The notes under the pieces were generated by a model. The model worked only from the letters and a program-made list of their open reading frames with translations. It made no database searches and had not been told where the DNA came from. Positions 7,155-64,000 of a DNA stretch of 64,000 nt are shown here, piece after piece. The DNA is from Spirochaetales bacterium. GTDB taxonomy: Bacteria > Spirochaetota > Spirochaetia > JABEVK01. Made by a program: the position numbers and the translations under genes. Location: NCBI GenBank assembly GCA_027451945.1, contig DAIDHT010000014.1:29628-93627 (forward strand), in the 5' to 3' direction. Each line of letters starts with the position of its first letter. Positions within the stretch are counted from its first letter, which is position 1.

Positions 7155-7155
7155 G

Positions 7156-9216
7156 TTAGACCTTTCCTGTCAAAAGGATGTCAATGAGCTTGATGCCCAC
7201 AAAGGGCAGAGCTAATCCCCCCAAGCCGTAGACGAGGAGGTTTTTTCGCAGAAGATGGATAGCCGACTGGGCTTTGTAGGCAACCCCTTTCAGAGCGAGT
7301 GGAATGAGCGCGGGGATGACTAGGGCGTTAAAGATAACCGCCGAAAGAATCGCCGACGCTGGCGAGCTCAGGTGCATGATATTCAAGGCCGCTAACCCCG
7401 GGTAGGTCACCAGAAACATCGCGGGAAGAATGGCAAAGTACTTGGCGATGTCGTTGGCAATACTGAAGGTCGTTAACGACCCCCGGGTGATAAGCATCTG
7501 TTTGCCCACGAGGACGACCTCGGTCAGCTTGGTAGGGTTCGAGTCAAGGTCGACCATGTTGCCGGCTTCTTTGGCCGCTTGGGTACCCGAGTTCATCGCG
7601 ACCGCAACGTCGGCCTGAGCCAGCGCCGGTGCGTCGTTGGTTCCGTCGCCCGTCATGGCGACCATGTGCCCCTCGGCCTGGTACTTGCGAATCAGGGCCA
7701 GCTTGTCTTCGGGCTTGGCCTCGGCCAAGAAGTCGTCCACCCCGGCCTCGGCCGCAATGGTGGCAGCCGTCATAGGGTTGTCCCCCGTGATCATAATGGT
7801 TTTGATTCCCATCTCGCGCAAGTCCGCAAAACGATCTTTTATCCCTTGCTTAACAATGTCCTTGAGGACGACGACACCCAGCACCTGAGCATCACGCGCC
7901 ACCACGAGCGGGGTGGCCCCGGCCCGAGCGGCAGCGTCAGCCAGACCCCGCACCTGCTCGGGGAAGCGTCCGCCTAGGGATGCGACCCAGGCTTCGATGG
8001 CACTAAGGGCCCCTTTGCGGTACGCCGAGCCGTTCCAATCCAGCCCGCTCATCCGAGTCTGTGCCGAAAAGGGAATCGCTTTATGCTCCTTGCCAGCGAA
8101 CGAGGGCGAGGGAATATGGAACTGCCGTTTAGCCAACGTCACGATACTGCGGCCCTCGGGGGTCTCGTCGGCCCACGACGCTAGGTACGCTGCCTGTGCC
8201 AACTCGGACGGTTCCACCTGAGGAGCGCCAAGAAACTCGTGGGCCATCCGGTTGCCGAGCGTGATGGTACCGGTTTTGTCCAACAGGAGCACATCAACAT
8301 CGCCGGCCGCCTCTACAGCCCGTCCGGAGGTAGCTAAGACGTTGACCGCCGACAACCGGTTCATCCCGGCAATCCCGATGGTCGACAACAGCGCACCAAT
8401 CGTTGTGGGCGCAAGACACACAAAGAGCGCCACCAGCGAGGTCAGGCTCACCACTTTTCCCGAACCTGACTGGGCAACCGCGTACTGGCTGAACGGCAAG
8501 AGCGTGGCTGTTACCACCAAAAAGATGAGCGTCAACGCGACCAACAAGATCGTCAAGGCGATTTCGTTGGGTGTCTTTTTACGCGCCGAGCCCTCGACGA
8601 GTGCGATCATGCGGTCCAAAAAGCCCTGACCAGGGTCGGCGCTCACGCGGACAATCAGCCGGTCCGACAGCACCTTGGTACCGCCAGTGACCGAACTACG
8701 GTCGCCTCCGGCTTCGCGGATCACAGGGGCACTTTCGCCGGTCACCGCACTTTCGTCCACGCTGGCCGCGCCCAACACGATCTCGCCGTCGGCGGGAACC
8801 AGCGTCCCGGCCTCGACGAGAATTAGGTCCCCCCTGTGCAGAGCTGACGAGCCCACGGTTTCGCCCGCGGACGCCCAGTCGGCCGTCTTGAGGCGGAGCG
8901 ATTGAACTTCACCGCGCGTTTTTCGCAGCTCGCTAGCCTGGGCCTTGCCTCGACCTTCGGCCAGAGCTTCAGAAAAGTTCGAGAACAAAACGGTGAACCA
9001 CAGCCACAGTGCCACGGCGAGGATAAAACCACTCCCCATCCCAGAATCGCTTACCCCGAAGAACGAGGCAACCCAAAACCCCGTGGTCAAAAGCGAGCCT
9101 ACCCAAACGGTGAACATCACAGGGTTCTTGATTTGCACGTTAGGTTTGAGTTTAACAAACGTCTGAGCTAACGCATCCCAGAACAGTTCCTTGGTCAAAA
9201 CAGCTTTTGCTTTCAT
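7156..9216 (-). CDS. kdpB: K+-transporting P-type ATPase subunit B
   Basis: [30 protein letters not shown]. Confidence 0.98.
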
Positions 9217-9239
9217 ACGTACTCCTTACGAAACATTCC

Positions 9240-10943: not shown

Positions 10944-10994
10944 AGTGCCTCCGCGCGAAGCCGAAGCTTCTGGGTACAAGCTACGCGAGAAGTC

Positions 10995-11043
10995 CGTAAA
11001 AAGGGGGTAAAAGTCTGTTGATAGGTGGTAAAATTGCGGTAAA
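10995..11043 (-). promoter_or_regulatory. Putative KdpE binding boxes: four TTTAC(C/G) hexamers
   Basis: Hexamers at 11038-43, 11027-32, 11006-11 and 10995-11000 (periods 11, 21, 11 bp); resembles the E. coli TTTATA-N5-TTTACA KdpE site. Confidence 0.65.
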
Positions 11044-11069
11044 ATAAGGTTTAACAGCCTGGAGGAACG

Positions 11070-12173
11070 ATGCTGAAACCTCTTGCCCCCGCCGAACTGC
11101 TTCTGTTTAAGCAAGAACGGTCGGCTTACAACTCGCGCCTGATGCTCTTCGCTTCTCTGTTGTTGTTTGCCACCGTCCTATTCTTCTTTATACAGAACTT
11201 GGTTTTTCCTGGCTTTGCCCCCGAGAACTATTTTACAACCCTGTACTCTCGTCTCTACCTTTCACAGCTTATTTTTACAGGAATTATGGCCTTAAGCATG
11301 GTCATAGTCCGAAAATGGGGGAGCCTTGTCATTGCGGAACGGCTCAGCTTGGTGTATGCGGCGATTTTTTTGTGTTGGGAAGCGGTTGTAGCGTGTACCG
11401 ATGTTAAATGCGGCGCTATTAGCTCCTTCTATGGCGTGGCGATGATCGGCGCTGCGATTTCGTTGCGGTATCACATGGGCTATTACGTCGGGGTTTTCTT
11501 GCTGTCGATCCTCACCAATTTAGTTTCGACCTTTTTTATTCCCGGAACCTACCCCGTGATCTACTTGGTCTATATGATCGCCTACTTCATCCTTTCGCTG
11601 TTTTTTGCGTTCATCCTCAACCGGTTATTTTTTGAGAACCTGATCAACAAGCAAAAATTAGTGAAGTACAACGAAGAGCTACGCCAAATTTCCTTTTTTG
11701 ACTTTTTGACAGGTTGTTACAACCGACGGTATTTTCAAGAGGTCTTAAGTCGCCAACTTTTGCTCGCACAGCGAAAACATCAGACCATTGCTCTGCTGAT
11801 GATCGACATTGATCATTTTAAACAGATCAACGATACCTACGGTCACCCTGTCGGCGACTCGGTTTTGGCCTCGGTGGGGGAGACTCTTCGTCTGTCGGTG
11901 CGTAGTTGTGATATCGTCTCACGCTATGGCGGAGAAGAATTCACGGTCATCCTCCTCTTGGAACCCACTCTGGACACCATGGCCTTGGTCGCCGAAAGGA
12001 TCCGGCAGGCTATAGCCGAAAAACCAATCGCCCCCCTCTCTGCCCCGGTAACCGTCAGTATTGGGGCGGCCCTGCTTGTACCCGGCGACACCGAAGAACT
12101 ACTGATCAACCGTGCGGACAATTTGCTATACCAGGCAAAGCAAGACGGTCGAAATCGCAGTAAAGTAAGCTAA
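11070..12173 (+). CDS. Membrane-bound diguanylate cyclase
   Basis: About 6 N-terminal TM segments; DFLTGCYNRR, DIDHFKQINDTYGH, I-site RSCD, RYGGEEF. Confidence 0.93.
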   Translation: MLKPLAPAELLLFKQERSAYNSRLMLFASLLLFATVLFFFIQNLVFPGFAPENYFTTLYSRLYLSQLIFTGIMALSMVIVRKWGSLVIAERLSLVYAAIFLCWEAVVACTDVKCGAISSFYGVAMIGAAISLRYHMGYYVGVFLLSILTNLVSTFFIPGTYPVIYLVYMIAYFILSLFFAFILNRLFFENLINKQKLVKYNEELRQISFFDFLTGCYNRRYFQEVLSRQLLLAQRKHQTIALLMIDIDHFKQINDTYGHPVGDSVLASVGETLRLSVRSCDIVSRYGGEEFTVILLLEPTLDTMALVAERIRQAIAEKPIAPLSAPVTVSIGAALLVPGDTEELLINRADNLLYQAKQDGRNRSKVS

Positions 12174-19495: not shown

Positions 19496-20773
19496 GTGCC
19501 CAAAAATTCGAGTTTCTTTATCAAACAGGACCCGATGCGGAGGGTGCTTTATGCCCTGACCCCCATCTTTTTGTGGTCAACCTACTTATACGGGTGGCGA
19601 GTGCCTCTTCTCTTGGCTTTCGTTGTCTTGTTAGCCAGCGCGGCAGAATTTGTCTTTGAGAAAAGCCGAGGCAAAAAAGTCACCGAAGCGGTTTGGGTAA
19701 CCGGCGGCTTATTCGCCCTCTCGCTCCCACCGGCTGTACCGTTTTGGGTGGCCGGCGTGGGCATTTTCTTTGCTGTCATCATCGGCAAAGAGGTCTTTGG
19801 CGGCTTTGGACGCAACCTCTACAACCCCGCCATCACGGGGCGAACCTTTGTCTACATCTCGTTTCCCCTGATGATGCAGACGACCTGGATGATTCCCGGC
19901 AATTTCGCCATCGGCGGTTCTATGAACTTGCTGATTCAAGGCTCAACCTTTCCTGAAGCGGCGTTTATGACTCTCCTAGCCGCCGGGTTATATTGGTGGT
20001 TTGTCAAAAGTGAGGGAAAAACTGGCCCGGTTATCCGAGGATCAATCGTGGCGGTCGTCCTGACGGTGGCGTTCTATGTCACGACCGCCTACCTGTTCCC
20101 CTATACCAAAGGGCACGCCAACGCCCTAAGCGATCTGGACGCCGTAGCCATGGCAACGCCCCTCGAGGTTTATCGAGGGTTAGCGCAGGCTCATGACTGG
20201 CACCGCACCGTCTCGCTTTTTGGCATGACCTTTCCGCTGGACGCCAACAATCCCCTGGCCCTGTTTTTAGGGTTGAGGGTTGGTTCCATTGGCGAAGGAC
20301 CGATTTTCCTCATCATTTTGGCGGGCCTGTACCTGATGATCACGAAAACCGCCAACTGGCGCCCCCTGATTTGGACCCTTGTGAGCGCCCTTGGCTTCAC
20401 CCTGCTGTTTTATTTTTCGGGCATGATGGACAGTCGCTTCCCCGTCTTTGCCGCGCACCGTAGTGTTGGGGGTCTGGCCACGCTGGGCGACCTTGCGGGC
20501 TTTTTAATGTCGGGCTCTTTGATGTTTGCCGCAGTCTTTATGGCCACCGACCCTGTTTCGGCCCCCAAAAAGCCCCTCTCGCAGGCGATCTACGGCATCA
20601 TCATTGGTAGTCTTACCATAACGATCCGTGTTTTCGCCGGCTTTCCCGAAGGGGTCAGCTTTGCAATTTTAACGGCCAATACCTTTGCGATGCTCCTGGA
20701 TGAAATTCTCCCCCCCAAAAAGAAAGAAGCCGTGGCTCCTAAAGTAGCCGCCAAGGCGGGAGGTGAGTCATGA
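19496..20773 (+). CDS. NqrB/RnfD-family membrane subunit
   Basis: KEVFGGFGRNLYNPA, FMN site DAVAMATPL, GSIGE, FMATDPVSAP, PEGV. Confidence 0.92.
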   Translation: MPKNSSFFIKQDPMRRVLYALTPIFLWSTYLYGWRVPLLLAFVVLLASAAEFVFEKSRGKKVTEAVWVTGGLFALSLPPAVPFWVAGVGIFFAVIIGKEVFGGFGRNLYNPAITGRTFVYISFPLMMQTTWMIPGNFAIGGSMNLLIQGSTFPEAAFMTLLAAGLYWWFVKSEGKTGPVIRGSIVAVVLTVAFYVTTAYLFPYTKGHANALSDLDAVAMATPLEVYRGLAQAHDWHRTVSLFGMTFPLDANNPLALFLGLRVGSIGEGPIFLIILAGLYLMITKTANWRPLIWTLVSALGFTLLFYFSGMMDSRFPVFAAHRSVGGLATLGDLAGFLMSGSLMFAAVFMATDPVSAPKKPLSQAIYGIIIGSLTITIRVFAGFPEGVSFAILTANTFAMLLDEILPPKKKEAVAPKVAAKAGGES

Positions 20774-21498
20774 GAATCAATAAAGACAGTCACGTCTTTA
20801 CCATATTTTTTACCTTTGCTGTCACCTTGGTGCTGGTGTTCCCCCTCACCTTAGCCTTTGTTACGACTAAACCCATTGCCGACAACTACTGGCGGCTTCA
20901 ACACTGGGTCAAAACCCTCAGGTCAATGGGCATTTCTGCTGACGCTGCACACCCCCATCAAGCCGAACGAGCCTACCAAGCCCTTAAGAAATATACCGTG
21001 AAAGGCACCGTCAATTACGACGCCGTAAAAGCGAACCCCCACTCACTTGCCATCACTCGGGTGAACGATGAGGTGATCAACAAGGCCCTTCAGGATACTA
21101 GCTATACCGGAAACCTTCCGATTTTCTTTTACTCTACCGTGGTTGATGGTCAAAAACGCTGGGCAGGCGACTTTACAGGGCCCGGTCTGTGGGGCAATGT
21201 CTCGTTGGCCGTAGGGGTCAATGCGGACGGTTCCCAGATCACCGGCGTTCAGGTTTTGTTTGACGTAGAAACCCCTGGCTTGGGGGGGCGAATCGGGGAG
21301 CCCTGGTTCACAGGGCAATTTAAGGGCCTTGAAACCTCCCAGGGAGTAGTCTTTAACCCCAGCGGCCAAAAACTACCCAATGGCATGGATGCCATCGCGG
21401 GTGCCACCATAACCAGTACAGCTGTCAGGGATATTTTGAATAACCGGGCGTTGATTCTTTTGAAAGCCTTTATCGCCCAGAAAGGGGGACAATCATGA
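20770..21498 (+). CDS. NqrC/RnfG-family FMN-binding subunit
   Basis: N-terminal TM; GPGLWG, ETPGLGGRI, DAIAGATITS. Confidence 0.92.
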   Translation: MRINKDSHVFTIFFTFAVTLVLVFPLTLAFVTTKPIADNYWRLQHWVKTLRSMGISADAAHPHQAERAYQALKKYTVKGTVNYDAVKANPHSLAITRVNDEVINKALQDTSYTGNLPIFFYSTVVDGQKRWAGDFTGPGLWGNVSLAVGVNADGSQITGVQVLFDVETPGLGGRIGEPWFTGQFKGLETSQGVVFNPSGQKLPNGMDAIAGATITSTAVRDILNNRALILLKAFIAQKGGQS

Positions 21499-22157
21499 GC
21501 ATGCCGACCTTCCGCCAGGTCACCAAAGAAAACCTCAGCGTTAACAATCCCGTCCTGGTTCAGGTTCTGGGAATCTGCTCGACGCTGGCAGTCACCAACA
21601 AGGTGGTGAATACCTTAATCATGACGGTGGGGGTGTCCTTAGTGACCGCCTTCGCTAGCTTTACGTTGAGCTGGATTCGGCACCTGATTGCCCGCCGGGT
21701 ACGCATGATTTTTCAAGTTTTGGCAATTACCTTTTACGTCGTTCTGTTTCAGCTGATTCTTAACGCCTTTGCTCCCGAAGTCGCCCGGTCACTAGGGCCC
21801 TACGTGGGGCTGATCATCACCAACTGTATCGTAATGGGTCGTACCGAAACCTTCGCCCCTGCGAATCCACCCCTCATTTCGTGGTGGGACGGGTTCACCA
21901 GCGGTATCGGCTACATGGCCGTTTTGGTTCTTTTGTCTGTAATCCGAGAACCACTGGCCTTTGGAACGATCGCCGATTTTCCGATTTTTCCCCCTCAGTA
22001 TGTTTCTGACGGCTACAACTGGACGATCGCCATCATGGCTCCCAGCGCGTTCTTTCTGGTCGCCATCATCATGTGGGTGTTCAAGACCAACGGTCTAAAA
22101 AAAGAAGAGGCTTTGAAAGCCGCTAAAACCGCTAATGCTATGGGAGGGGCAGCATGA
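21495..22157 (+). CDS. nqrD: NqrD/RnfE-family subunit
   Basis: NNPVLVQVLGICSTLAVT, YVGLIITNCIVMGR, APSAFF. Confidence 0.9.
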   Translation: MSMPTFRQVTKENLSVNNPVLVQVLGICSTLAVTNKVVNTLIMTVGVSLVTAFASFTLSWIRHLIARRVRMIFQVLAITFYVVLFQLILNAFAPEVARSLGPYVGLIITNCIVMGRTETFAPANPPLISWWDGFTSGIGYMAVLVLLSVIREPLAFGTIADFPIFPPQYVSDGYNWTIAIMAPSAFFLVAIIMWVFKTNGLKKEEALKAAKTANAMGGAA

Positions 22158-22744
22158 GTTACGTTGATCCTATAACGCTACTTTTTGCGTCGATCTTTAC
22201 GTCAAATATTATTTTGGCCAACTTTCTGGGTACCTGCTCGTTCATCGCGATTTCTAAAGACCTTGGTTCTTCGAATGGTTTGGGTATTGCCGTTATTGTG
22301 GTTCTCGTGCTTTCAAGCGCCATCAGTTGGCCCATTCTGCACTACATTCTGATCCCGTGGAATATGATCTACCTCGACCTCTTTGCCTACATCATCGTGG
22401 TGGCGGCAGTGGTTCAAGCCCTCGAGATGATCATTGAACGCGTTAGCCCTGCGTTGTACATGAGTCTGGGGATCTACCTGCCCTTGATCGTAGCCAACTG
22501 CGCGATTTTGGGTGTGGTGTTGTTTATGGAAATCCGCAATTACGATTACGTTCAGGCCCTGATCTTTGGTTTTGGTTCAGGAATCGGCTGGTGGCTGGCC
22601 ATCATTTTGGCGGCGGCTATGCGGAAAAAAATCGATAAGTCCAACGTTCCGGCGGGCCTTAAGGGGCCCGGCATTACCCTCATTACCATGGGCCTGATGG
22701 CTATGGCTTTTGTGGGCTTTTCAGGTATTCTTCGGGTGCAATAA
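22154..22744 (+). CDS. nqrE: NqrE/RnfA-family subunit
   Basis: FLGTCSFIA, LGIYLPLIVANCAILG, GLMAMAFVGFSG. Confidence 0.9.
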   Translation: MSYVDPITLLFASIFTSNIILANFLGTCSFIAISKDLGSSNGLGIAVIVVLVLSSAISWPILHYILIPWNMIYLDLFAYIIVVAAVVQALEMIIERVSPALYMSLGIYLPLIVANCAILGVVLFMEIRNYDYVQALIFGFGSGIGWWLAIILAAAMRKKIDKSNVPAGLKGPGITLITMGLMAMAFVGFSGILRVQ

Positions 22745-22755
22745 GGAGTCTGCTC

Positions 22756-23883
22756 ATGTTTCCTCTATCGACTTTGGCAGCGCAGGCCCTGCTGATTGGC
22801 GGCGTCAGCGTCCTCATGGCCGTCATGATTTCGGTGATTGACAGCATTGTCAACAACTATGGTGATGTTCAGTTGGACATCAACGGCAAAAAGCAGGTTA
22901 CGGTCAAAGGAGGCTCAAAACTCCTGGGGACCCTAGCCGACCAAGGAATCTTTCTTCCCTCCGCTTGCGGAGGACGCGGTTCGTGCGGGGCTTGTAAATG
23001 TCAGGTCAAATCGGACGTAGGCCCCCACTTACCGACCGAAGTGCCCTACTTAACTCAGCAGGAGCTTCGTGAAAATGTTCGCCTGGCCTGTCAAGTTAAG
23101 GTGAAAGCGGATATTGGAATTGAAATACCAGAAGATCTGTTTAATATTAAAAAGCTCAGCTGTACCGTGGAATCAATGACGAACCTGACCTACGACATTA
23201 AAGAAGTTCGACTTAAGCTTCCCGAAGGGTCTGATTTAACCTACACAGCCGGTCAGTACGGCCAGATAGAAGTTCCCGCCTACGGTGGCATTCGCGAACC
23301 GTCAGCTCGGGCCTACTCGTTTGCCAGCGCCCCTCAAGAAAAAGACACCTTAGAATTTTTGATTCGTCTGGTGCCGGGGGGTACCGTCACCACCTATGTG
23401 CACAAATTCCTCAAGGTGGGCGACAAGATTAACGTCGTGGCTCCTGTCGGAGATTTTCGTGTCCACGACACCCAAGCCGCCATGATCTGCGTCGGCGGTG
23501 GTTCGGGAATGGCTCCCTTTCGTTCCATCTTTCGGGATATGGAGGCTCGCGGTGTGCTCGGGGAACGAGACATTTGGTATTTCTTTGGCGGACACTCAGT
23601 AAAAGACCTCTACTTCATGGATTGGTTAAAAGAGTTAGAAGCCAAATACGAGCGCTTCCACTTTATTCCTGCCGTTTCAGAGCCTGGCCCCGGTGAAGTG
23701 TGGGAAGGTAAACCGGCTCGCTTAATTGACGTTCTGGCCGAAAAGTTTAAAACAGAAATTCCTCGTGAGCTTATCAAAGAAGGCTATTTGTGCGGGTCTC
23801 CTGGAATGCTAGATGCTTGTATGGACATTATGCGCAAGAATGGAATGACTGACGACAAGATTTACTTCGACAAATTTGCCTAA
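22756..23883 (+). CDS. nqrF: NqrF-like subunit (TM, 2Fe-2S, FAD/NAD domains)
   Basis: SACGGRGSCGAC, RLAC, RAYSF, GGGSGMAP, YLCGSP, FDKF. Confidence 0.9.
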   Translation: MFPLSTLAAQALLIGGVSVLMAVMISVIDSIVNNYGDVQLDINGKKQVTVKGGSKLLGTLADQGIFLPSACGGRGSCGACKCQVKSDVGPHLPTEVPYLTQQELRENVRLACQVKVKADIGIEIPEDLFNIKKLSCTVESMTNLTYDIKEVRLKLPEGSDLTYTAGQYGQIEVPAYGGIREPSARAYSFASAPQEKDTLEFLIRLVPGGTVTTYVHKFLKVGDKINVVAPVGDFRVHDTQAAMICVGGGSGMAPFRSIFRDMEARGVLGERDIWYFFGGHSVKDLYFMDWLKELEAKYERFHFIPAVSEPGPGEVWEGKPARLIDVLAEKFKTEIPRELIKEGYLCGSPGMLDACMDIMRKNGMTDDKIYFDKFA

Positions 23884-53183: not shown

Positions 53184-53834
53184 TTAGGTATCCATTGAAA
53201 GGGGCAAAATTAACCGCGCGACTGTCTCCTTCTCGTGCGTATAGACACGGAAGAAATCGCCGTCGAAACCGAGTTTCTTGAGCATAAGAACCAGAACCAA
53301 AATGCCCAACCCCGCGCCTTCTGACTCGTCCAACATATCAGAAAAGGCATCTTCCAGGGTATTGTAGCTCATCGCTTTTGTAATTTTGTCCCGTATTCGT
53401 CCTTCTTCGGCTGGTAGAAGGGCAACATTGTTGCGAACAGCCACCGAAACCATGTCCTTACGGTAGAGAAACTCGACCTTCACATACAGATCTTTTTCTT
53501 TTAATAACTTTAAGTAATGGGCCTGATTCTGAAGCATATCCGCTTTAAAGTCCTTCATCCCTTCGCGGTATTGGTCTTCATCGGAGGGGTCCCAGTTTTT
53601 TTCCTGAAAATACAACCGCTTGGTGTTGGCCTTTTTCGCATTAACAACCATTTCTTTCAAACAATAAGACACCTGTTCTAAGATAAAGGGTACACCAATT
53701 TCTTCTAAAAAGACTTTCAGCATGGCATCAATGTATTGTTGAGCTTTTGGTAAAAACGTATACGTTTTTATGGTTAAAGGCTTTCCTTCTTTGAGAGCTC
53801 GGATCACCTTTTTGTGACTTGTGTCGTCAGTCAT
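53184..53834 (-). CDS. Stand-alone GHKL/HATPase-like protein (anti-sigma kinase-like)
   Basis: N-box KEMVVNAKKAN, VRNN, G-box EGAGLGI; no H-box. Confidence 0.7.
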   Translation of the reverse strand: MTDDTSHKKVIRALKEGKPLTIKTYTFLPKAQQYIDAMLKVFLEEIGVPFILEQVSYCLKEMVVNAKKANTKRLYFQEKNWDPSDEDQYREGMKDFKADMLQNQAHYLKLLKEKDLYVKVEFLYRKDMVSVAVRNNVALLPAEEGRIRDKITKAMSYNTLEDAFSDMLDESEGAGLGILVLVLMLKKLGFDGDFFRVYTHEKETVARLILPLSMDT

Positions 53835-55297: not shown

Positions 55298-57208
55298 ATG
55301 TCGTTTGTTCAGCTCAATAACGTTTCGCTAGCCTTTGGCGACCGAGACATTCTTTTAGAATCTGATCTGACCCTCCGAGCTGAAAAAAAAACGGCCTTGG
55401 TGGGTATCAACGGTTCAGGAAAATCCACCTTATTAAAGGTCTTGGCGAGAGAGCTTTCACCCGACGGTGGCCAGGTCATCGCACCCGAGGGTGTTCGCGT
55501 CGGCTACCTACCCCAAACCTGCCTTGTTACCGGGGGATCAGTTTTTGAAGAAGCGGAACGTGCCTTTGAAAACCTCCGCCAAAAAGAAGCTCAAGCTCAG
55601 CAGTTGGCCGAGGCGGCGGCAGGGGCCGAAACTCAACAGGCTCTCAAACTTCTAGAAAAGAGTCATGAAATTCTTGAATTTCTTGAGGTCGCTGGGTGGT
55701 ACCGGCGTCAAGAAACCATCGAGCAAACCTTGAGGGGGCTGGGGTTTACGACGAAGACTCTTCACAGTCAAGTTACCGTGCTGTCTGGCGGTTGGCAAAT
55801 GCGAGTCGCCTTAGCCCGTCAGTTGCTCGCAGCTCCTGACATCCTTTTGCTGGACGAACCCACAAACTACCTCGATTTAGAAGCCAAAGAGTGGTTAGAA
55901 AACTTCTTAAAACGGCGCCAGCAGGGTTTTTGTTTGGTTTCACACGACCGCGCCTTTCTCGATGAAGTTGTCGATCAAGTCATTGAAATTGCCAACGGTC
56001 AGCTGTCAGTTTTTTCTGGAAACTATTCGGCTTTCGAGCAGCGCCGCGCCGAAGAAAAGCTTCGGCTTCAAGAAGCCTTTAAGCGTCAGCAAGCCGAGCT
56101 TGCCAAACAAGAGGCGTACATTCAACGGTTTCGTGCACAAGCAACCAAGGCCTCGGGGGTTCAAAGCCGAATCAAGCAATTAGAAAAGCTCGACCGAATT
56201 GAACTAACAAGTGACACCCCAACGCTAAGGTTTCGCTTTCCCCCTGTGCCACACTCCGGCCATGATGTGTTAACTGTGCGCGCTCTCAAGAAGGCCTGGG
56301 GTGATAATCCCGTCTTTTCAAACTTAGATTGGGATGTCAGCAAAGGTTCCAAAGTCGCGATTACAGGCCCGAATGGCGTTGGAAAATCCACGCTGATGAG
56401 GATTTTAGCCGGCCGCGACCCCTACTTTTCAGGAACCCTACGCTGGGGAAGTGGAGTTCAAACTGCCTATTTTTCGCAAGATCATGAAAATGACCTTGAC
56501 CCCCAAAAAACGGTTCTCGAAGAACTCGAAGCTGACGCTCCCACCGCTATGTTCCCCCGTCTTCGTGATTTGTTAGGGGCATTCCTCTTTCCAGGTGATG
56601 ATGTCGAAAAAAAGACCGCCGTTTTGAGCGGCGGTGAAAAGAATCGCCTCACTTTGGTTAAGATGCTGATTCAACCTTCGAATGTTTTACTTTTGGATGA
56701 GCCGACAAACCACCTCGATCTAGCTTCGAAAGACGTCCTCTTGGACGCCTTAAAATCCTACGAGGGTACCATTTTTGTGGTTTCGCACGACAAATACTTT
56801 TTGTCTCACCTCGTCGACCAAGTTCTCGAACTTGCCACCGACGCTCCGACAAGGCATTGGGGTGGTTGGCAAGATTTTGCCCGCAAACTCGAAGAACGCG
56901 TCAATGTACTTTCTCCGGGCGTTGTTTCGGCAAAAACGGAATCGCAACTTTCGCGGGATGAAGCCAAAAAACGCCAATCCCAAGAACGTCGCCTTCAACG
57001 CGAAGAAGAAGCTCTTTTGATGCAGTTGGATGAACTTGAGTCTAAACTTAAACAACAGCTTGAACAAATGTCTGACCCTCAAAACTACAAAGACGGAGCG
57101 TTTATGCGCCGGCTTCAGCAGGAAAGGGAGGGGTTGGAACGTCAACACGCCGAAACTCAAACTCGCTGGGAAGCTACAGCCCGTGAGTTAGAAGCTCTTA
57201 AAGCGTGA
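55298..57208 (+). CDS. ABC-F family ATPase
   Basis: Two NBDs (GINGSGKS/LSGGW/DEPTN and GPNGVGKS/LSGGE/DEPTN), linker, C-terminal coiled coil, no TM. Confidence 0.95.
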   Translation: MSFVQLNNVSLAFGDRDILLESDLTLRAEKKTALVGINGSGKSTLLKVLARELSPDGGQVIAPEGVRVGYLPQTCLVTGGSVFEEAERAFENLRQKEAQAQQLAEAAAGAETQQALKLLEKSHEILEFLEVAGWYRRQETIEQTLRGLGFTTKTLHSQVTVLSGGWQMRVALARQLLAAPDILLLDEPTNYLDLEAKEWLENFLKRRQQGFCLVSHDRAFLDEVVDQVIEIANGQLSVFSGNYSAFEQRRAEEKLRLQEAFKRQQAELAKQEAYIQRFRAQATKASGVQSRIKQLEKLDRIELTSDTPTLRFRFPPVPHSGHDVLTVRALKKAWGDNPVFSNLDWDVSKGSKVAITGPNGVGKSTLMRILAGRDPYFSGTLRWGSGVQTAYFSQDHENDLDPQKTVLEELEADAPTAMFPRLRDLLGAFLFPGDDVEKKTAVLSGGEKNRLTLVKMLIQPSNVLLLDEPTNHLDLASKDVLLDALKSYEGTIFVVSHDKYFLSHLVDQVLELATDAPTRHWGGWQDFARKLEERVNVLSPGVVSAKTESQLSRDEAKKRQSQERRLQREEEALLMQLDELESKLKQQLEQMSDPQNYKDGAFMRRLQQEREGLERQHAETQTRWEATARELEALKA

Positions 57209-58235
57209 CAACCTGACCTTCACGAGCACTTCGACGACAGGCTTCGAGTAAACGGACAACCGCTTGTCCTTCTTGCGCGGTAAACGCTAGGGGTTCTTCG
57301 TTCCTTAAAGCTTTGGCAAAATTCTGGTAGAACGCCAGGTATCGTCCTTTTTGCGTGGGAAGCGGCCGAGAGTTCCCTTCCCCATCGGTCAAAACACCCC
57401 AAAGTTGTTCGGGTTCAGCCCCGAACGTTTCGTCCTGGGGGTTCAGACCTTTTTGCAACTGCTCTTCTTGCGGGTCCATGCCAGATTTGAGAAACGTCCC
57501 CTTTGTTCCCTGCAAGGCCCAATGAAAGGGGCTGCGGCGAACAACCATGCTGGACGACAAATCGACCCACAACCCCGAGTAGTCCAGGCTGATTCGAAAA
57601 GCGTCCACCACAGAACTTGCATCCCGCTGAACACCTAACCGACAAGAAAGCGCCCGAGGTTTTCCAAAAAGGTGCAACGCCTGATCGAGCAAATGGCTAC
57701 CCAGATCCTCGAGCAGGCTATCGCCTTCTTGACCCGTTTCCTTCCATGCTTTTTTGCGTAGCGTATTCGACCACCGATCATAGCGCACTTCGACATGAAC
57801 CAGCCTACCCAACGATTCGGTTCGTATCAGGTCTGCCACCGTTAAATAGTCTCCGTCGAGTCTGCGGCTTTGGAACACCGACAAGAGTCGACTTGATGCC
57901 ACCGCCTGTTGGATCAAGGCCTCGGTTTCACGGGTTGTGTTGGCCATGGGCTTTTCAACAATGACGTGTTTGCCCGCCTTCAAAAATCGAGTGGACACCT
58001 CGGCATGCAAGCCGTTAGGAAGACAGATCACGGCAACATCAATAAGTGGCGATTCCACCAAAGCTTCCCAGGACGAAAAAACAGTAGCTTCGGGTACAAG
58101 CTTTCGCGAATCTTCGCCCTTGCGGTCTACCACTGCGGTGATTGTAAAATCTTGGTTTAAAACCTTTAACAAGGGCAAATGAAACGTCTTCGCGGACGAA
58201 CCAAACCCAACAAGTCCAACTCGAAACGGTTTCAT
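57198..58235 (-). CDS. Gfo/Idh/MocA oxidoreductase (YdgJ/IolW-like)
   Basis: VGFG, GKHVIVEKP, FQSRRLDGD, DLGSH, GMDPQE. Confidence 0.92.
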   Translation of the reverse strand: MKPFRVGLVGFGSSAKTFHLPLLKVLNQDFTITAVVDRKGEDSRKLVPEATVFSSWEALVESPLIDVAVICLPNGLHAEVSTRFLKAGKHVIVEKPMANTTRETEALIQQAVASSRLLSVFQSRRLDGDYLTVADLIRTESLGRLVHVEVRYDRWSNTLRKKAWKETGQEGDSLLEDLGSHLLDQALHLFGKPRALSCRLGVQRDASSVVDAFRISLDYSGLWVDLSSSMVVRRSPFHWALQGTKGTFLKSGMDPQEEQLQKGLNPQDETFGAEPEQLWGVLTDGEGNSRPLPTQKGRYLAFYQNFAKALRNEEPLAFTAQEGQAVVRLLEACRRSAREGQVVTL

Positions 58236-60184
58236 GAGTGTTTCCTTTTAATAAGAAGCATGGTCAAATCGTCGGCTAAGTGCCCTTGATGGAGTCTAAC
58301 ATCTCCGTTTTGTGCAAACCGATACAGCTCATTGCGTAAAGAGGTTAAAATTGACTCGGGGTCCTGGCGACAATTTTGTTTCAGCCATTGTTTTGTTCGT
58401 TCAAGCCCAAATTGTTCTGACTGGGCATCTTTGGCTTCAATGAGCCCATCGGTGTAAAGGAGGAGAAAATCCCCTTCAGCCATCGTAAAGGACCCCAAAG
58501 ATGTCGAAGAATCCACCAACTCCGAGAGCCCTAAAAAGGCCGTTTGGTCAATCATTTCGGCAAGTTCTATGATCGCATCCTGTTTGCTATCGTAGTACAA
58601 GCCGATTTCGTGGGTACCGGCATGAAAGAAGCGCCCCTCTTTTTCTATAAGCAGCAGTTTGGTCATAAACTTGTCACTGCCGATTCGGTCACGATTGATC
58701 TCGCATAGAACACGGTTCACCATATCGTAGATTTTGTCAGGTTGCGGTGGCGAACCAAAGGCAAGATGGCTTTGAACAATCCCGTGAAGCGCCGACATCT
58801 CGATTAACGCCATGATTCCCGACGGCAACCCGTGGCCAGACACATCACCGATACTGATAAAATTTCCTAGGGGCGTATTGAGCACATCATAAGAATCGCC
58901 CCCAACCTCGGAGGCTGTTTCCATGTGAGCTGCGATTTCATAGCCCGGCAAAACGGGGTTTTTAGGTAGGATTGAGCTTTGAATATTCCTGGCAATGTCC
59001 ATTTCTTGGGCAAGGCGAAACGACTTTAGCTCCAACTCTCTTGCCAATTTTTCTTGGAGCAGCTTTTCGCGTAGTGCCGCCAACGTCGAAGCCATTTCTT
59101 TTCGGATTTCACGAAAAGGAAAACCGGGATGCTCGGCAGCTTCTACGGCAAGAATGACTAGCTGACCAGCTGTAGCACTGAGCGCATACCAAAGGAACTT
59201 GTCCTCGGCGAGATTGAGGACGCCTAAGCGTTTTTCGAACGGTAGTGCCGAAAGAATTTTTGAGGCGTTTTTCTCTAAACCGTATTTTGTCGCCTTGTTC
59301 CAATATTTAGAAAACCGCACTGCCGACTCGCCGTTTTCGTCGTGAAAAAGGATAAACGCGTTGGGCAACCCACAAAAGTTCCCCACGACTTTCAGGGAGC
59401 GTTCAAAGAGAATTTCGGGACGTGTGATGTTATTGTGAAACTGATTGAACTTGTTCTCGATGGCTTGCCGTATCATATATTCCGAGTTGTTCAGAATGTT
59501 GTGAGCTTCTTCAATGTCAATTTCTGAAACACTGCCCGAATAAATGACTCTTCCTCGGCGCAGAAGTACCACGTCATCGCACAACTCAAAAAGCTGAGCG
59601 GGGGCTTCGGGTACCAGAAGTACGCCCTTACCGTTTTCTTTTAGATCTTTCAGCTTTTCTTGAAACTTTTTATATTGCTCTAACGAAACCGAAGTCAAAC
59701 AATCTCGCATTAAGAGGTAATTGGCTTCTTGCATAAAGAAGAGAATCACCGCTAAAAGCCGACGTTCCGCCACAGAAAGCTGGGCAACGGGCGTATCCAA
59801 AGAGCGCTTAAGACCAAAATATTCGATGGTGGGTCGTACCGCCTTAATCATCCGATCCTGATGAACCACTTTTTTTTTGCTACTCATTCCCACCAGCAGG
59901 TTGTCTAAAATACTCAAATTGGGAAACAACCGCCCGCTACCAGGTACGAGCTGTATGCCCTGGTCCCCCCAACCCTGACGGTCTTCGGTCAAAACCTGTT
60001 GGTTTAAGGTAATCTTTCCTGAATCAGCCTGATCCAAGCCCGCCAGAATATCCAACAAAGCGGAAGTTTCTGACTTATCGAGGCTTAACACCCCGGTGAC
60101 TTTTCCCGGCTCTAGGACCACCGAGACTTTTCGTAAAACAGCCGTATTATTTCGGACTTTAGAGATTTCAGCCGCTTGTAACAT
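58232..60184 (-). CDS. Degenerate ABC ATPase domain fused to PP2C/SpoIIE phosphatase
   Basis: N-terminal sugar-ABC NBD scaffold with altered catalytic motifs; C-terminal VGGDSYD, GDVSGHG, YTDGL, DDLT. Confidence 0.9.
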   Translation of the reverse strand: MLQAAEISKVRNNTAVLRKVSVVLEPGKVTGVLSLDKSETSALLDILAGLDQADSGKITLNQQVLTEDRQGWGDQGIQLVPGSGRLFPNLSILDNLLVGMSSKKKVVHQDRMIKAVRPTIEYFGLKRSLDTPVAQLSVAERRLLAVILFFMQEANYLLMRDCLTSVSLEQYKKFQEKLKDLKENGKGVLLVPEAPAQLFELCDDVVLLRRGRVIYSGSVSEIDIEEAHNILNNSEYMIRQAIENKFNQFHNNITRPEILFERSLKVVGNFCGLPNAFILFHDENGESAVRFSKYWNKATKYGLEKNASKILSALPFEKRLGVLNLAEDKFLWYALSATAGQLVILAVEAAEHPGFPFREIRKEMASTLAALREKLLQEKLARELELKSFRLAQEMDIARNIQSSILPKNPVLPGYEIAAHMETASEVGGDSYDVLNTPLGNFISIGDVSGHGLPSGIMALIEMSALHGIVQSHLAFGSPPQPDKIYDMVNRVLCEINRDRIGSDKFMTKLLLIEKEGRFFHAGTHEIGLYYDSKQDAIIELAEMIDQTAFLGLSELVDSSTSLGSFTMAEGDFLLLYTDGLIEAKDAQSEQFGLERTKQWLKQNCRQDPESILTSLRNELYRFAQNGDVRLHQGHLADDLTMLLIKRKHS

Positions 60185-60234
60185 CTGCCTTTCTCTCCCT
60201 CAAGGGAGGACCCCCAAGGATCCTCCCCCATGTT

Positions 60235-61440
60235 TTAGCGGCGCTTCTTTGATGTAATGTCAAACCAAACAGCAACGGTAAGAATGACACCTTTAATGAT
60301 GTACTGGTACTGAATATCCCAGTTCAACAGGTACATACCGTTATTGAGCGACCCCATGAACAAGGCACCGATAATGGCGCCAATGATCGTTCCTTCACCA
60401 CCTAGGGTCGAGGTACCACCCACGACAACCGCGGCGATGGTATCCAATTCCCAGAGGTTACCAGCGGCCGGAGAGGCACTGGCCATACGACCGGTAAAGA
60501 CTAACCCCGCCACTGAAGCCAGGGTTCCCATGATAATAAACACCCACATCGTTCGCGAGCGAATATTAATACCCGAGAGCTTGGCTGCTTCTTTGTTACC
60601 GCCAATGGCGTAGATATGCCGTCCAAACACCGTTTTGGTGGTGATAAAGACAAACAACAGCGCCAACAAAATCAGGAACAAGAAGGCGTAAGAAATTCCC
60701 ACATAGAAGGTTTGAATCGCAAAAATCCCAGCAATCAAAATTGATACCAGAATAATTTTGCCTAACTGCAGGGCCCAAGGCAGAACATCAAAACCGAACT
60801 TGAGACGGTTAGCTCGACTGCGGAACTCAAACACCCAGTAAAGGACGATGGCGAGCACCCCTAGCATCAACGAAAGGTCGTGGAAGGGTACGTCTTTACC
60901 CACCGTTCCTTTAAGGAACAACTGGGGCAAGAAGCCCGAGCCAAATTGATAAATAACACCTGACTGAACAGGAACCGTCTGTCCGTTGTGAACCGCCAAA
61001 AGGATGAACCCGTGGAACATCAAGAACGAACCCAAGGTAACAATGAAGGCGGGCACACCTCGGTAGGCCACCCAAAAGCCTTGCCACAGGCCGGTTAAGA
61101 TACCAACAGAGAGTGCCAAAGCGATGGCGGCCCAAATGTTCCAGTGCCACCCCGACCAAGCCATGGCCGCTACCGCACCAGAGGTACCACCTAACCACCC
61201 AACCGACAGGTCAATATGTCCTGCCACCATGATGAGCACCATGCCTACCGCGAGGATGGCGATATAAACGTTCTGTCCCAACAAGTTGGAAAGGTTTCTC
61301 GGAGTGATAAATTCGCCCCCCGAAAGCACCTGAAAGATCAACCAAACCACAATCAGGGCGATGAACATCGCATACTGATTAATATTTGTTTTAAAGCCAG
61401 AGATGATAATCTGGCTCATGCTCTTATTTCGGGTTTCCAT
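60235..61440 (-). CDS. xylH: Monosaccharide ABC permease (XylH/GguB-like)
   Basis: IDLSVG, VPAFIVTL, FGRHIYAIGGN, ELDTIAAVVVGG. Confidence 0.88.
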   Translation of the reverse strand: METRNKSMSQIIISGFKTNINQYAMFIALIVVWLIFQVLSGGEFITPRNLSNLLGQNVYIAILAVGMVLIMVAGHIDLSVGWLGGTSGAVAAMAWSGWHWNIWAAIALALSVGILTGLWQGFWVAYRGVPAFIVTLGSFLMFHGFILLAVHNGQTVPVQSGVIYQFGSGFLPQLFLKGTVGKDVPFHDLSLMLGVLAIVLYWVFEFRSRANRLKFGFDVLPWALQLGKIILVSILIAGIFAIQTFYVGISYAFLFLILLALLFVFITTKTVFGRHIYAIGGNKEAAKLSGINIRSRTMWVFIIMGTLASVAGLVFTGRMASASPAAGNLWELDTIAAVVVGGTSTLGGEGTIIGAIIGALFMGSLNNGMYLLNWDIQYQYIIKGVILTVAVWFDITSKKRR

Positions 61441-61442
61441 TC

Positions 61443-63011
61443 TTACTTACCTCCCGTGGCGTAATACATGCATTTTTCCTGCGTGGCTTCCTGCCACGGT
61501 AAATCACCGGTTATTCTGCCTTGGTGGATCACCAAAACCCGATCGCTCATACCCAACACTTCCGGCAATTCTGAACTGATCAGAACAATGGCCACCCCAT
61601 TGTCAATCAATTCATTCATGAGGTTGTAGATCTCAAATTTGGCGCCAACGTCGATTCCCCGTGTCGGTTCATCCAGCACGAGAATCTTGGGCTCGGTCAT
61701 GAGCCACTTTCCGATGACTACTTTTTGTTGGTTACCGCCCGAGAGATTTTTTACTTTCTGTTCTATAGAGGGGGTCTTAATTTGAAGCTGTTTCACATAA
61801 TGGTTGGTGATTCTGACTTCTTTGAGGTAATTGATCACACCTGCTTTAACAACTTGTTTATCAAAAGTCTCCATGACCCCATGATCTGAAACTTTCTCTA
61901 AACTCGACAGGGTGGTGTTGGACAATATGTCCATTCCTAAGACAAGACCTTTCTCTTTCCGGTCTTCGGAAAGGTAGGTAAATCCAGAGCGAATAGCATC
62001 TCGGGGTGAATGAAACGTTTGTTTTTTTCCGTCGATAAAAATCTCTCCCGAAATATCTCTACCGTAGCTCCTGCCAAACAAACTAAGAAATAACTCGGTG
62101 CGGCCCGCCCCCATTAAACCCGCGATTCCCAGGATTTCTCCTTTGCGAATCTGAAAACTCACGTTGTCGATGACTTTCTTTTCGATCAGTTCGGGGTGAT
62201 AAACCGTCCAGTTTTTCACCTCCATCACCACCTCACCAGCTTTGTGTTCCTTGCGGGGGAAGCGGCTGGTCAGTTTTCTTCCGACCATAAAGTTGATCAT
62301 CTTTTCTTCGGTCATTCCGCCGTCATCGTGGACGCCTTGAGAATGGATTGAGTGCCCATCCCGCAAGACCGTAATCGAGTCGGCGATTTCCAAAACCTCT
62401 TCCAGTTTATGTGAGATGTAGATGCAGGTGACCCCTTTACTCTTGAGTTCACGCAGAATCTTAAGAAGATTTTTACTATCTTCTTCGTTCAAAGCCGCCG
62501 TCGGTTCATCAAGAACCAGAATTTCGGCATTTTTCGAAAGCGCTTTGGCGATTTCGACCAGCTGTTGCTGACCAACACCGAGATTGATTAATCTTGTCTC
62601 CGGCGAAACATTCAGACCCACTTCTTTGAGGTATTGTTGGGTGCGAACGAAGGCCTCATGCCAATCGATGATGCCATTCTTCGACACTTCATTCCCTAAA
62701 AAAAGGTTTTCCATTATGTTCAGAAGCCTCACCAAGGCTAGCTCCTGATAAATCACCACGATCCCATGGTGCTCGCTATCACGGATGTTACGGAATTGCA
62801 CTTCCTCACCCTTGACGCGAATATGCCCCGTGTAGCTCCCAAAAGGGTGAACACCGCTCAGCACTTTCATCAAAGTGGATTTACCCGCCCCGTTCTCTCC
62901 GACCAAGGCGTGGATTTCCCCCTTTTTGACGCGGAAGCTGACGTTGTCGAGGGCTTTGACACCGGGGAACTCCTTGGAAATATTATCCATTTCGAATACG
63001 AATTCGCTCAT
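61443..63011 (-). CDS. xylG: Monosaccharide ABC ATPase (XylG/GguA-like)
   Basis: GENGAGKS, DEPT, EDRK, LSGGNQQK, DEPTRGIDVGAK. Confidence 0.9.
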   Translation of the reverse strand: MSEFVFEMDNISKEFPGVKALDNVSFRVKKGEIHALVGENGAGKSTLMKVLSGVHPFGSYTGHIRVKGEEVQFRNIRDSEHHGIVVIYQELALVRLLNIMENLFLGNEVSKNGIIDWHEAFVRTQQYLKEVGLNVSPETRLINLGVGQQQLVEIAKALSKNAEILVLDEPTAALNEEDSKNLLKILRELKSKGVTCIYISHKLEEVLEIADSITVLRDGHSIHSQGVHDDGGMTEEKMINFMVGRKLTSRFPRKEHKAGEVVMEVKNWTVYHPELIEKKVIDNVSFQIRKGEILGIAGLMGAGRTELFLSLFGRSYGRDISGEIFIDGKKQTFHSPRDAIRSGFTYLSEDRKEKGLVLGMDILSNTTLSSLEKVSDHGVMETFDKQVVKAGVINYLKEVRITNHYVKQLQIKTPSIEQKVKNLSGGNQQKVVIGKWLMTEPKILVLDEPTRGIDVGAKFEIYNLMNELIDNGVAIVLISSELPEVLGMSDRVLVIHQGRITGDLPWQEATQEKCMYYATGGK

Positions 63012-63050
63012 ATACCCCTCGTTCGTGCGACGGAGGAAACCTCCGGCTAC

Positions 63051-63079
63051 AAAAAAGCGGCGACCGAAGCCGCCGCTTT
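63051..63079 (-). terminator. Intra-operonic terminator-like hairpin after the binding-protein gene
   Basis: Minus strand GCGGCGGC-TTCG-GTCGCCGC-TTTTTT. Confidence 0.8.
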
Positions 63080-63118
63080 CACGACGTTAAATTGTCGGAA
63101 ATTCTTCCGGCAAAAACC

Positions 63119-64000
63119 TTATTTCGTCATTTTCAAGTCAGAAGCTTTGACGTAACCGCTGTTCACGACATCCATGACGTTAGCCTTGGTGATGACTTCA
63201 GGCGCCAGGAGCAGTGAGGGAACATCAACGCTACCGTTGTTGACAGTCTGGTTGGCCGAAACACCAGCGAAGGTGATGGCGGACACAGGTTGACCCTGAG
63301 CCAGAGCAATAGCGGCGGCGACAGAAGCTTCAGCTTCTTTGCGGTTATCCTTGAACACGGTCATGCCTTGGGTACCGTCAAGGATTCTCTGCAGACCAGC
63401 AACTTCAGCATCCTGACCGGTGACGGCCACTTTGCCTTCGAGTTTCTGAGCGGTAAGAGCCTGAATAGCACCACCAGCGGTACCATCGTTGGGAGCCAGG
63501 ATGGCGTTGATCTTGTTCTTGTTGGCAGTCAGAGCCTGCTCAACAATGGTCAAAGCGTTCGAGGGCAGCCAGTTCGCTACAGCCTGATCGCCAACGATCT
63601 TGATGTCGCCCTTCTTGACGAGAGGCTCGATCACGCTCATGGCGCCTTGCTTGAAGAGCTTGGCATTGTTGTCGCCGGGGTCGCCTGACATAATCAGGTA
63701 GTTTCCTTTCGGAACGGCTTTGGTCAGCCATTCACCCTGCAGTTCACCAACTTTCACGTTGTCGAAAGAAACGTAGAGGGCAATGTTCGGGGTGTCCAGG
63801 ATCAAGCGGTCATAAGAAACAACCGGCACTTTCTGAGCGGCAGCCTTGTTAGCCATCGCAGCAGCGGTGGTAGCATCGGCAGGAGCCAGAATCAGGGCCT
63901 GAATGCCCTGGCTGAGCAGAGAGTCAACTTGGGTAGCCTGCTGAGCGGCATCGGCGTCAGCGGACTGAACCTTAAGAATAACTCCAGCCGCTTCAGCGGC
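63119..64000 (-). CDS. xylF: Xylose-type ABC substrate-binding protein, 5' end beyond the window
   Basis: Frame open to 64000; SYDRLI, FDNVKVGELQ, DNNAKLF, NW, PNDGTAGG, TGQDA. Confidence 0.87.
   Translation of the reverse strand, partial: AAEAAGVILKVQSADADAAQQATQVDSLLSQGIQALILAPADATTAAAMANKAAAQKVPVVSYDRLILDTPNIALYVSFDNVKVGELQGEWLTKAVPKGNYLIMSGDPGDNNAKLFKQGAMSVIEPLVKKGDIKIVGDQAVANWLPSNALTIVEQALTANKNKINAILAPNDGTAGGAIQALTAQKLEGKVAVTGQDAEVAGLQRILDGTQGMTVFKDNRKEAEASVAAAIALAQGQPVSAITFAGVSANQTVNNGSVDVPSLLLAPEVITKANVMDVVNSGYVKASDLKMTK

Follow-up and report, generated by a model that had tools for sequence, protein, structure and literature searches.

The stretch of DNA considered in this study (the window) comprises 64,000 nucleotides from Spirochaetales bacterium (GenBank assembly GCA_027451945.1, here G000; contig DAIDHT010000014.1, positions 29,628 to 93,627 of the forward strand). 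Its subject is a single open reading frame (ORF) near the end of the window, 58232..60184 on the reverse strand, which starts with ATG and encodes a protein of 650 amino acids (aa). According to the ORF list and the translation, the gene follows, on the same strand, the genes of a sugar importer of the CUT2 type resembling xylFGH. Its product joins a nucleotide-binding domain (NBD) of the ABC type that has lost its ATPase motifs, referred to below as the dead NBD, to a GAF-like domain and then to a protein phosphatase domain of the PP2C (PPM) type. I estimate the probability at about 0.55 that the protein is a transporter-coupled signalling phosphatase, with the dead CUT2 NBD and the GAF-like domain as its input, and that its gene is co-transcribed with the importer.

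A first-pass annotation, made from the letters of the window and a list of its ORFs, had described an NBD fused to a phosphatase, encoded 50 nt after xylH in an operon that already possesses an intact XylG. The peptide strings it quoted are all present in the translation, and the coordinates agree with its spacing. XylG is indeed intact, matching ABC_tran in two stretches (179.6 bits) and the xylose ATPase model PRK13549 with 704.9 bits (cut-off 699). The fusion also stands, but the annotation overlooked the GAF-like domain that intervenes between its two parts. A consensus scan of the 50-nt gap found no terminator-like or promoter-like site, and the equivalent gaps measure 42–71 nt within family f1 and, in G115, a genome from another family, 162 nt.

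Table 1. Features of the phosphatase gene and its surroundings. Positions are those of the window, except where L098, which continues the locus beyond it, is named. dN/dS is the ratio of nonsynonymous to synonymous substitution rates.
Feature	Position	Strand	Basis
Dead-NBD/GAF-like/PP2C phosphatase, whole gene, 650 aa	58232..60184	-	ORF; Pfam ABC_tran and SpoIIE; full-length relatives
Pseudo-ATPase ABC nucleotide-binding fold, aa 1-222	59519..60184	-	Pfam, NCBIfam, HMMER alignment, AlphaFold2, Foldseek, dN/dS
Post-NBD helices, aa 223-271	59372..59518	-	Conservation, NCBIfam extent, DSSP of AlphaFold2 model
GAF-like alpha/beta core, aa 272-356 (the predicted fold also takes in flanking helices)	59117..59371	-	AlphaFold2, VIA-align, Foldseek
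Long helix between GAF-like and PP2C domains, aa 357-405	58970..59116	-	DSSP of AlphaFold2 model
SpoIIE/RsbU-type PP2C (PPM) phosphatase domain, aa 406-650	58235..58969	-	Pfam PF07228, Asp motifs, structure alignment
Gap between xylH stop (60235) and phosphatase start (60184), 50 nt	60185..60234		ORF coordinates
XylH/GguB-like CUT2 permease, 401 aa	60235..61440	-	BPD_transp_2 132.9 bits; GguB 395.7 bits, below its cut-off of 450
XylG/GguA-like CUT2 ATPase, 522 aa, two intact NBDs	61443..63011	-	Pfam, NCBIfam
XylF-like sugar-binding protein, gene continuing beyond the window in L098	63119..64000	-	Peripla_BP_4 204 bits; xylF TIGR02634 308 bits, below cut-off
GFO/IDH/MocA oxidoreductase, start overlapping the phosphatase stop by 4 nt	57198..58235	-	ORF, Pfam
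Terminator-like GC-rich hairpin with a T run after it, in the interval from xylF to xylG	63056..63074	-	Consensus scan only
Second binding protein, 369 aa	within L098:983-5988	-	G000
REC+AraC response regulator, 497 aa	within L098:983-5988	-	G000
HAMP/His_kinase/HATPase kinase, 493 aa	within L098:983-5988	-	G000
Binding-protein-like gene, 328 aa	within L098:983-5988	-	G000

The Dead Nucleotide-Binding Domain

The relationship of the N-terminal domain to ABC ATPases is evident at the level of both sequence and predicted fold. Pfam ABC_tran matches residues 18-159 with 38.4 bits (cut-off 25, E 2.3e-9), the best NCBIfam matches, covering residues 2-230, are to the N-terminal NBD halves of LsrA, YtfR, AraG and AlsA (E 1e-27 to 6e-22), and 124 solved NBD chains match at E ≤ 1e-3. 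AlphaFold2 models most of residues 1-220 with a predicted local distance difference test score (pLDDT) of about 85–95, and the best Foldseek match to the NBD is LptB (4p33_A), with a template modelling (TM) score of 0.85 and a root-mean-square deviation (rmsd) of 2.3 Å over 223 columns.

The positions of the ATPase motifs were set by HMMER alignment to the solved NBDs LptB (6mjp) and FbpC (3fvq) and by an alignment of the family that included XylG. In place of Walker A stands S34-L-D-K-S-E39-T40, with T40 at the position of the Lys. That Lys is lost from all 14 family members (Thr in 13, Leu in one), an invariant Glu standing just before it. The Gln of the Q-loop is replaced by Gly (G82) and the His of the H-loop is absent, each in 14 of 14 members; the window protein has P192-E193 for the Ser-His of the H-loop. 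Its Walker B Asp-Glu has become R160-D161, at positions that vary across the family, and its signature motif reads LSVAE. The position at which ABC ATPases stack an aromatic residue against adenine has no aromatic residue in the family. The former ATP site and H-loop have acquired invariant residues specific to the family: S34, E39, G82, P192, Q197, C202 and D203. The HMMER and family alignments thus bear out the reading, already present in the first-pass annotation, of an NBD in which Walker A, Walker B and the H-loop have been replaced. The ATPase motifs have all been lost, while the predicted ABC fold is intact.

The dead NBD is nonetheless under purifying selection. By the method of Nei and Gojobori, comparison of G000 with its relative G005 gives dN/dS ratios of 0.069 (NBD), 0.048 (middle part of the protein) and 0.050 (PP2C domain), values that come from this pair of genomes, synonymous sites being saturated in the others.

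The origin of the domain can be traced. A profile of the NBD and linker, run against 1.84 billion representative proteins, found five clusters of the family itself, after which the bit score fell from 247 to 171. The next 145 of the best 150 matches are proteins of approximately 475–913 aa, mostly about 500, each hit in two stretches, with the N-terminal NBD as the stronger in all but three. Since these next matches are the N-terminal NBDs of CUT2 ATPases, the dead NBD descends from CUT2 NBD1. A recent duplication of the operon's own xylG may be rejected: the dead NBD and XylG are just 17% identical, over 86 aa, and the split between them must therefore be old.

From the NBD to the Phosphatase

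Three modelled helices (residues 224-231, 235-252 and 256-271) follow the NBD. They constitute the best conserved stretch of the protein outside the PP2C domain, above the sheet of the GAF-like domain, with N229, N232, N233, Q240, E243, N244, K245 and F246 invariant in 12 of 12 sequences. The first part of the stretch aligns with the linker that joins the two NBDs of CUT2 ATPases, and the NCBIfam matches to AlsA, RbsA and GguA extend to residues 252-261.

Residues 224-410, folded alone by AlphaFold2, gave a model with a pLDDT of 87, and the top rows of its VIA-align comparison are GAF domains (Z 9.9–9.0), scores that lie close to the noise guide of Z 7–8. They include 6bak_A (Z 9.9, rmsd 3.9 Å, 140 residues aligned), the GAF domain of PDE5 (3mf0_A, Z 9.6) and that of Nlh1 (4g3k_A, Z 9.1). 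Foldseek matched the GAF-like part to 3cit_A (E 1.5e-4) and 4g3k_A (E 3.4e-4). The corresponding region of three family members has no Pfam match at E ≤ 10, and its Atlas feature scores, at 0.90 or less, serve as leads only. The middle domain therefore appears to be GAF-like, as an assignment at the level of the predicted fold. Its beta-sheet core is poorly conserved across the family.

A modelled helix of 49 residues (134-182 of the partial model) connects the GAF-like domain to the phosphatase. It is a candidate for a coiled-coil signalling linker, by analogy with RsbU (PMC12143880).

In the C-terminal domain, SpoIIE (PF07228) matches residues 443-647 with 86.3 bits, over positions 7-191 of the 192 in the profile. 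D430, D447, D579, D638 and D639 do not vary among the 12 sequences aligned (12 of 12). They line up with the Asp motifs of the solved PP2C structures 6k4e and 3ke6, in keeping with the annotation's statement that the motifs are intact, and are probably metal ligands, as in the rest of the family. The closest PP2C paralogues (P0012-P0044), approximately 50% identical in the PP2C part only, were considered as possible carriers of a hidden NBD, but ABC_tran was found in none of the seven examined at a Pfam threshold of E ≤ 1.

Distribution and Synteny

Among 5.8 billion proteins there are 11 clusters of full-length relatives, 649–668 aa in length and with identities of 39–98%. Full-length genes are carried by seven genomes in two families of Spirochaetota, with identity down to 30%, the value for the protein of G115 over its full length. 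Within the window's order (12 genomes) the gene is found in six: all four of genus g1, the one of g2 and one of the two of g3. It was not found in five genomes of g4, nor in any of the 19 other genomes of the order of G115. A scan of genome contigs for PP2C motifs kept 80 loci, one of them full-length (L001, on the same contig as G004). The one locus that a metagenome scan returned, L099, was not counted, its synonymous sites being identical to those of the G001 gene (proportions of synonymous and nonsynonymous differences, pS 0.000 and pN 0.001). The members go by the names "SpoIIE family protein phosphatase" and "hypothetical protein" at NCBI. The family is small and known so far only from uncultured spirochaetes.

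In all seven genomes (G000, G005, G006, G004, G001, G002 and G115) the phosphatase gene shares its strand with genes for a CUT2 ATPase and permease and comes directly after them, at distances of 42–162 nt. A gene for a binding protein is visible at six of the seven loci; in G006 the contig ends within xylG. Conversely, the phosphatase gene is in none of the flanks of 13 xylH loci from 12 other genomes of Spirochaetota, where the sequence available downstream amounts to about 1.5 kb at 10 loci, the informative ones, from other families, and to less than 250 nt at three.

Might the linkage be no more than an operon inherited once? In a maximum-likelihood tree of 20 permeases, the seven that adjoin the phosphatase gene do not form one clade: well-supported branches force at least three changes of label, and a single clade appears in 0% of the bootstrap trees. 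Some long branches were flagged and the topology is provisional (L104 was included though it lies outside alignment A4). Since the adjoining permeases are not monophyletic, the linkage reflects more than a single frozen ancestral operon. Two histories would account for this, many losses of the gene or its re-pairing with different CUT2 transporters.

The genes further out are less constant. The oxidoreductase gene follows the phosphatase gene in genus g1 only, other genes taking its place in G001 and G115. Upstream of xylF in G000, past position 64000 of the window (L098:983-5988(-), contig C14), lie the four further genes of Table 1. The same set is present in G004 and G002, judged from ORF sizes alone. 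In G001 this sensor-like set is not adjacent, the upstream neighbor being a macroglobulin gene, and the conserved core of the locus is therefore the transporter plus the phosphatase.

Reuse of the Input Module

The dead NBD is not confined to phosphatases. P0122, a protein of 935 aa encoded on a Logan contig of 8759 nt, shares its residues 1-380 with the protein of G115 (P0269) at 39% identity. Within this stretch lie the dead NBD, its P-loop degenerate in the same way, the conserved linker and the GAF-like region, and in place of PP2C the C-terminal output of P0122 consists of Hpt and HATPase_c. Since P0122 joins the module to a histidine kinase, the dead NBD with its GAF-like companion behaves as a portable input domain. 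Such a swap fits a scheme of exchangeable sensors and coiled-coil linkers for PPM phosphatases and kinases (PMC12143880).

A different fusion stands directly upstream of the sugar ABC operon of G115. P0268 (316 aa, L116:5512-6462(+)) consists of a domain like CUT2 NBD1 and a helix-turn-helix of the LuxR/GerE type. Its Walker A and B motifs are intact, the His of the H-loop alone being replaced. There are about 13 clusters with this architecture, for some of which the only name is "ABC-type sugar transport system ATPase subunit", and they may represent a second way to wire a half-ATPase to a signalling output. The same locus is flanked by genes for a PAS-GGDEF-EAL protein (L116:241-1899(+)) and an EAL-HDOD protein (L116:12904-14133(+)), a hint of cyclic di-GMP signalling near the pathway in that organism.

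In another lineage, P0050 (830 aa) combines Peripla_BP_3/4 with SpoIIE, that is, a sugar-binding input of the LacI type with a phosphatase. P0111, also from another lineage, is a SpoIIE phosphatase that likewise has a LacI-type domain resembling periplasmic binding proteins. From fusions of the P0050 type it follows that PP2C phosphatases with a direct sugar-binding input exist.

Possible Coupling to the Transporter

The conserved synteny and the reuse of the module on a kinase both fit a sensor linked to a transporter. The ABC fold of the dead NBD would have been kept for docking on the importer, at the cytoplasmic coupling helix of XylH or on a face of XylG. The conformational state of the importer, or the flux through it, would then pass by way of the post-NBD helices to the GAF-like domain and from there along the linker helix to the PP2C dimer, switching the dephosphorylation of a target carrying phosphoserine or phosphothreonine. 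The target is probably a partner-switching protein of the STAS type encoded elsewhere. The genome of G000 contains seven matches to STAS, several of them in small stand-alone ORFs (among these C41:56098-56403, C39:50951-51220 and C35:47531-47797), as well as 11 matches of the SpoIIE type and several matches to RsbW-like kinases.

Docking was examined by complex prediction, in three runs pairing XylH (alignment of 18 rows) with residues 1-235 of the phosphatase (12 rows), alongside three controls. The median score was 0.54 (0.56, 0.53 and 0.54), as compared to 0.01 for the best control, with agreement in contacts of at least 95% and a pLDDT of the partner of at least 75. Of 157 solved complexes, 116 attain the mark applied to such predictions, as do 2 of 215 mismatched pairs. 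The prediction makes it plausible that the dead NBD docks on the transporter.

Several considerations weigh against this interpretation. At scores of 0.60 or lower, just 18 of the 157 solved complexes passed, along with both of the mismatched pairs that passed at all; the controls were unrelated proteins rather than real NBDs, and the score may reflect mere likeness to solved complexes of NBDs with permeases. XylG is a fused double NBD which, by the stoichiometry of RbsA and RbsC in the ribose system, should fill both sites of the permease dimer and leave none free. The permeases' failure to form one clade gives no sign of a specific interface that has co-evolved. The full-length AlphaFold2 model has a predicted TM score (pTM) of 0.48 and leaves the arrangement of the domains undefined, and the real sensing element could be the GAF-like domain. 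On the side of the output, none of the seven STAS matches is on the contig of the phosphatase, and Pfam found no STAS protein, anti-sigma kinase or other obvious substrate family among the window ORFs scanned, the others of which belong to ordinary housekeeping families or to no family. The spread of the gene is narrow as well: a sample of 401 genomes from the class contained only the same six carriers and one of 401 genomes from the phylum contained two (G000 and G115), although just five first-look candidates were scored per genome and some members may have been missed.

The sensor proposed in the first-pass annotation thus fares unevenly. Its linkage to a transporter fits both the loci, each with its CUT2 ATPase–permease pair (7/7), and the reuse of the module, but physical docking draws on one prediction with XylH, which gives it weak support. 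Dephosphorylation in a partner-switching pathway is what the PP2C family would suggest, but no STAS protein or anti-sigma kinase was seen among the ORFs of the window to go with it. By its own terms the annotation would also have been refuted by a fusion peculiar to its assembly or by an NBD free of purifying selection; the 11 clusters and seven genomes in two families, and the dN/dS of 0.069 for the NBD as compared to 0.050 for PP2C, speak otherwise.

How do other explanations compare? That the gene is an assembly chimera, or a decaying relic whose NBD part does nothing, might be suspected from an assembly in 41 contigs and from the low ABC_tran score of 38 bits. The architecture, however, recurs in independent assemblies and collections, free of internal stops and with a confidently predicted fold, and I consider the explanation ruled out by the full-length relatives, the synteny at seven of seven loci and the dN/dS ratio. 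More serious, though still unlikely, is that the protein senses a metabolite in the cytoplasm, the dead NBD and GAF-like domain forming a soluble module for dimerization and ligand binding that never touches the transporter. The ligand would be, for example, an imported sugar or sugar phosphate held in the former nucleotide pocket or in that of the GAF-like domain, and the operon would signify co-expression with uptake. A GAF-like fold directly before a linker helix is what is seen in known GAF-PP2C phosphatases (PMC12143880). Proteins such as P0050 show that PP2C phosphatases elsewhere do sense sugar directly, the permease sites should presumably be taken already by XylG, and the support for docking is weak. 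But it is the core of the GAF-like sheet that is poorly conserved, as opposed to the NBD and the post-NBD helices, and a phosphate-binding loop with an invariant Glu and no Lys argues against nucleotide-like ligands. A soluble sensor also leaves unexplained why the ABC fold was retained and why the gene adjoins permeases of different clades.

The same synteny and fold would serve a regulator of the transporter itself, with transport rather than gene expression as the output. A motif-less NBD on the permease is an obvious competitive inhibitor: it could compete with XylG or pair with an NBD of XylG and so brake uptake, or the PP2C domain could dephosphorylate a component of the transporter, there being no separate substrate gene found nearby. 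I regard this as improbable. The module has an Hpt/HATPase kinase for its output in P0122, an indication of signalling rather than of a brake on transport, the catalytic motifs of the PP2C domain are strictly conserved, and several small stand-alone STAS ORFs of the genome could be substrates. A more radical arrangement, possible but doubtful, is that the two dead NBDs of a phosphatase dimer replace XylG beneath a dimer of XylH, and that binding protein, permease and phosphatase together make a receptor that does not transport. Docking of the sugar-loaded binding protein would be conveyed mechanically by way of the coupling helices, first to the dead NBDs, then through the post-NBD helices and the coiled coil to the PP2C dimer. 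The cassette of dead NBD and GAF-like domain would in that case be a general, exchangeable reader of ABC transporters, which also drives the kinase P0122 and has a counterpart in P0268.

Comparison with Known Systems

The sensor domains known from bacterial PP2C phosphatases are PAS, GAF, HAMP, receiver and RsbU-N. The protein described here resembles phosphatases like RsbU, RsbP and SpoIIE in its SpoIIE-family PP2C domain, its Asp motifs and its N-terminal sensor connected through a long helix. It differs from them in having a dead ABC NBD as the outermost input and in the absence of an adjacent gene for a STAS or kinase partner. Forms with GAF and PP2C, such as RsbZ of Clostridioides difficile, share the GAF-like domain just upstream of the linker (PMC12143880). 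The same source gives PAS, REC, GAF and HAMP as sensors of PPM phosphatases, a dead ABC NBD not being among them, and the 2025 classification of bacterial PP2C proteins has no occurrence of ABC, ATP-binding, transporter or P-loop (PMC12088040). Among the open-access papers listed by full-text searches, no title or opening of an abstract describes a fusion of an ABC NBD with PP2C. The sensor architecture is real and, within that literature, undescribed: a PPM phosphatase of the partner-switching type with a new input domain.

With the CUT2 ATPases (XylG, GguA, RbsA, AraG and LsrA), whose N-terminal NBDs are the best relatives of residues 1-260, the protein shares the beginning of the inter-NBD linker, the fold and the operon. 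The motifs, however, have been lost, and the second NBD has given way to GAF-like and PP2C domains. The NBD-LuxR(GerE) protein P0268 is alike in placing half of a CUT2 ATPase on a signalling output beside the same kind of transporter, and differs in its intact Walker A and B motifs, its DNA-binding output and its lack of GAF-like and PP2C domains.

The proposed logic, in which a signalling protein reads an adjacent ABC transporter, has a likeness in flux sensing by BceAB-BceS (PMC4513084). In such systems the transporter is active and makes contact with a kinase or regulator that is a separate protein, whereas in the present case a dead copy of the ATPase is built into the signalling protein, and the contact is a proposal. 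The logic resembles known transporter-coupled sensing more generally; MalK-MalT and PstSCAB-PhoU-PhoR follow the same logic and differ in the same way.

If the interpretation of a transporter-coupled phosphatase is true, then a dead ABC ATPase domain is a new class of sensor domain for PP2C phosphatases, and it offers the cell a simple means, open to test, of measuring the state of its sugar importer rather than the sugar. It would also be a clean natural example of a pseudoenzyme retained for its docking surface. Given its presence on a histidine kinase, the module may serve as an adaptor of general use, connecting ABC importers to signalling pathways. The immediate reach of the finding is limited by the small size of the family and its restriction to uncultured spirochaetes.

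Other Features of the Locus

The hairpin between xylF and xylG could, to judge from its match to a consensus, act as an attenuator, keeping the binding protein in high ratio to the transporter. The four genes upstream of xylF resemble in layout the three-component xylose sensor XylFII-LytS-YesN of clostridia. That system senses extracellular sugar through a binding protein on a kinase and controls transcription; the phosphatase would be a second, separate output. Xylose isomerase and xylulokinase families were absent from the window ORFs scanned. At least half of the query words from the locus were contained in four DNA sequencing runs from one study; none of the runs listed is of RNA.

An ORF of 216 aa beside argH (53184-53834(-)) has short motifs that, by eye, recall small GHKL kinases, a reading not upheld by the searches, its best Pfam match being to an unrelated family at E 0.035 and no NCBIfam family matching; the ORF is conserved next to argH in G005 (94% identity). 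Just downstream, on the opposite strand, a protein of 636 aa is encoded at 55298-57208(+); it contains a pair of ABC cassettes, ends in a charged tail and, by reading only, looks like one of the ABC-F type. The rest of the window holds ordinary operons for kdpABC-kdpD/E (3119-11114(-)) and of the Nqr/Rnf type (19496-23883(+)), together with a cluster for biotin synthesis and further genes of a housekeeping kind.

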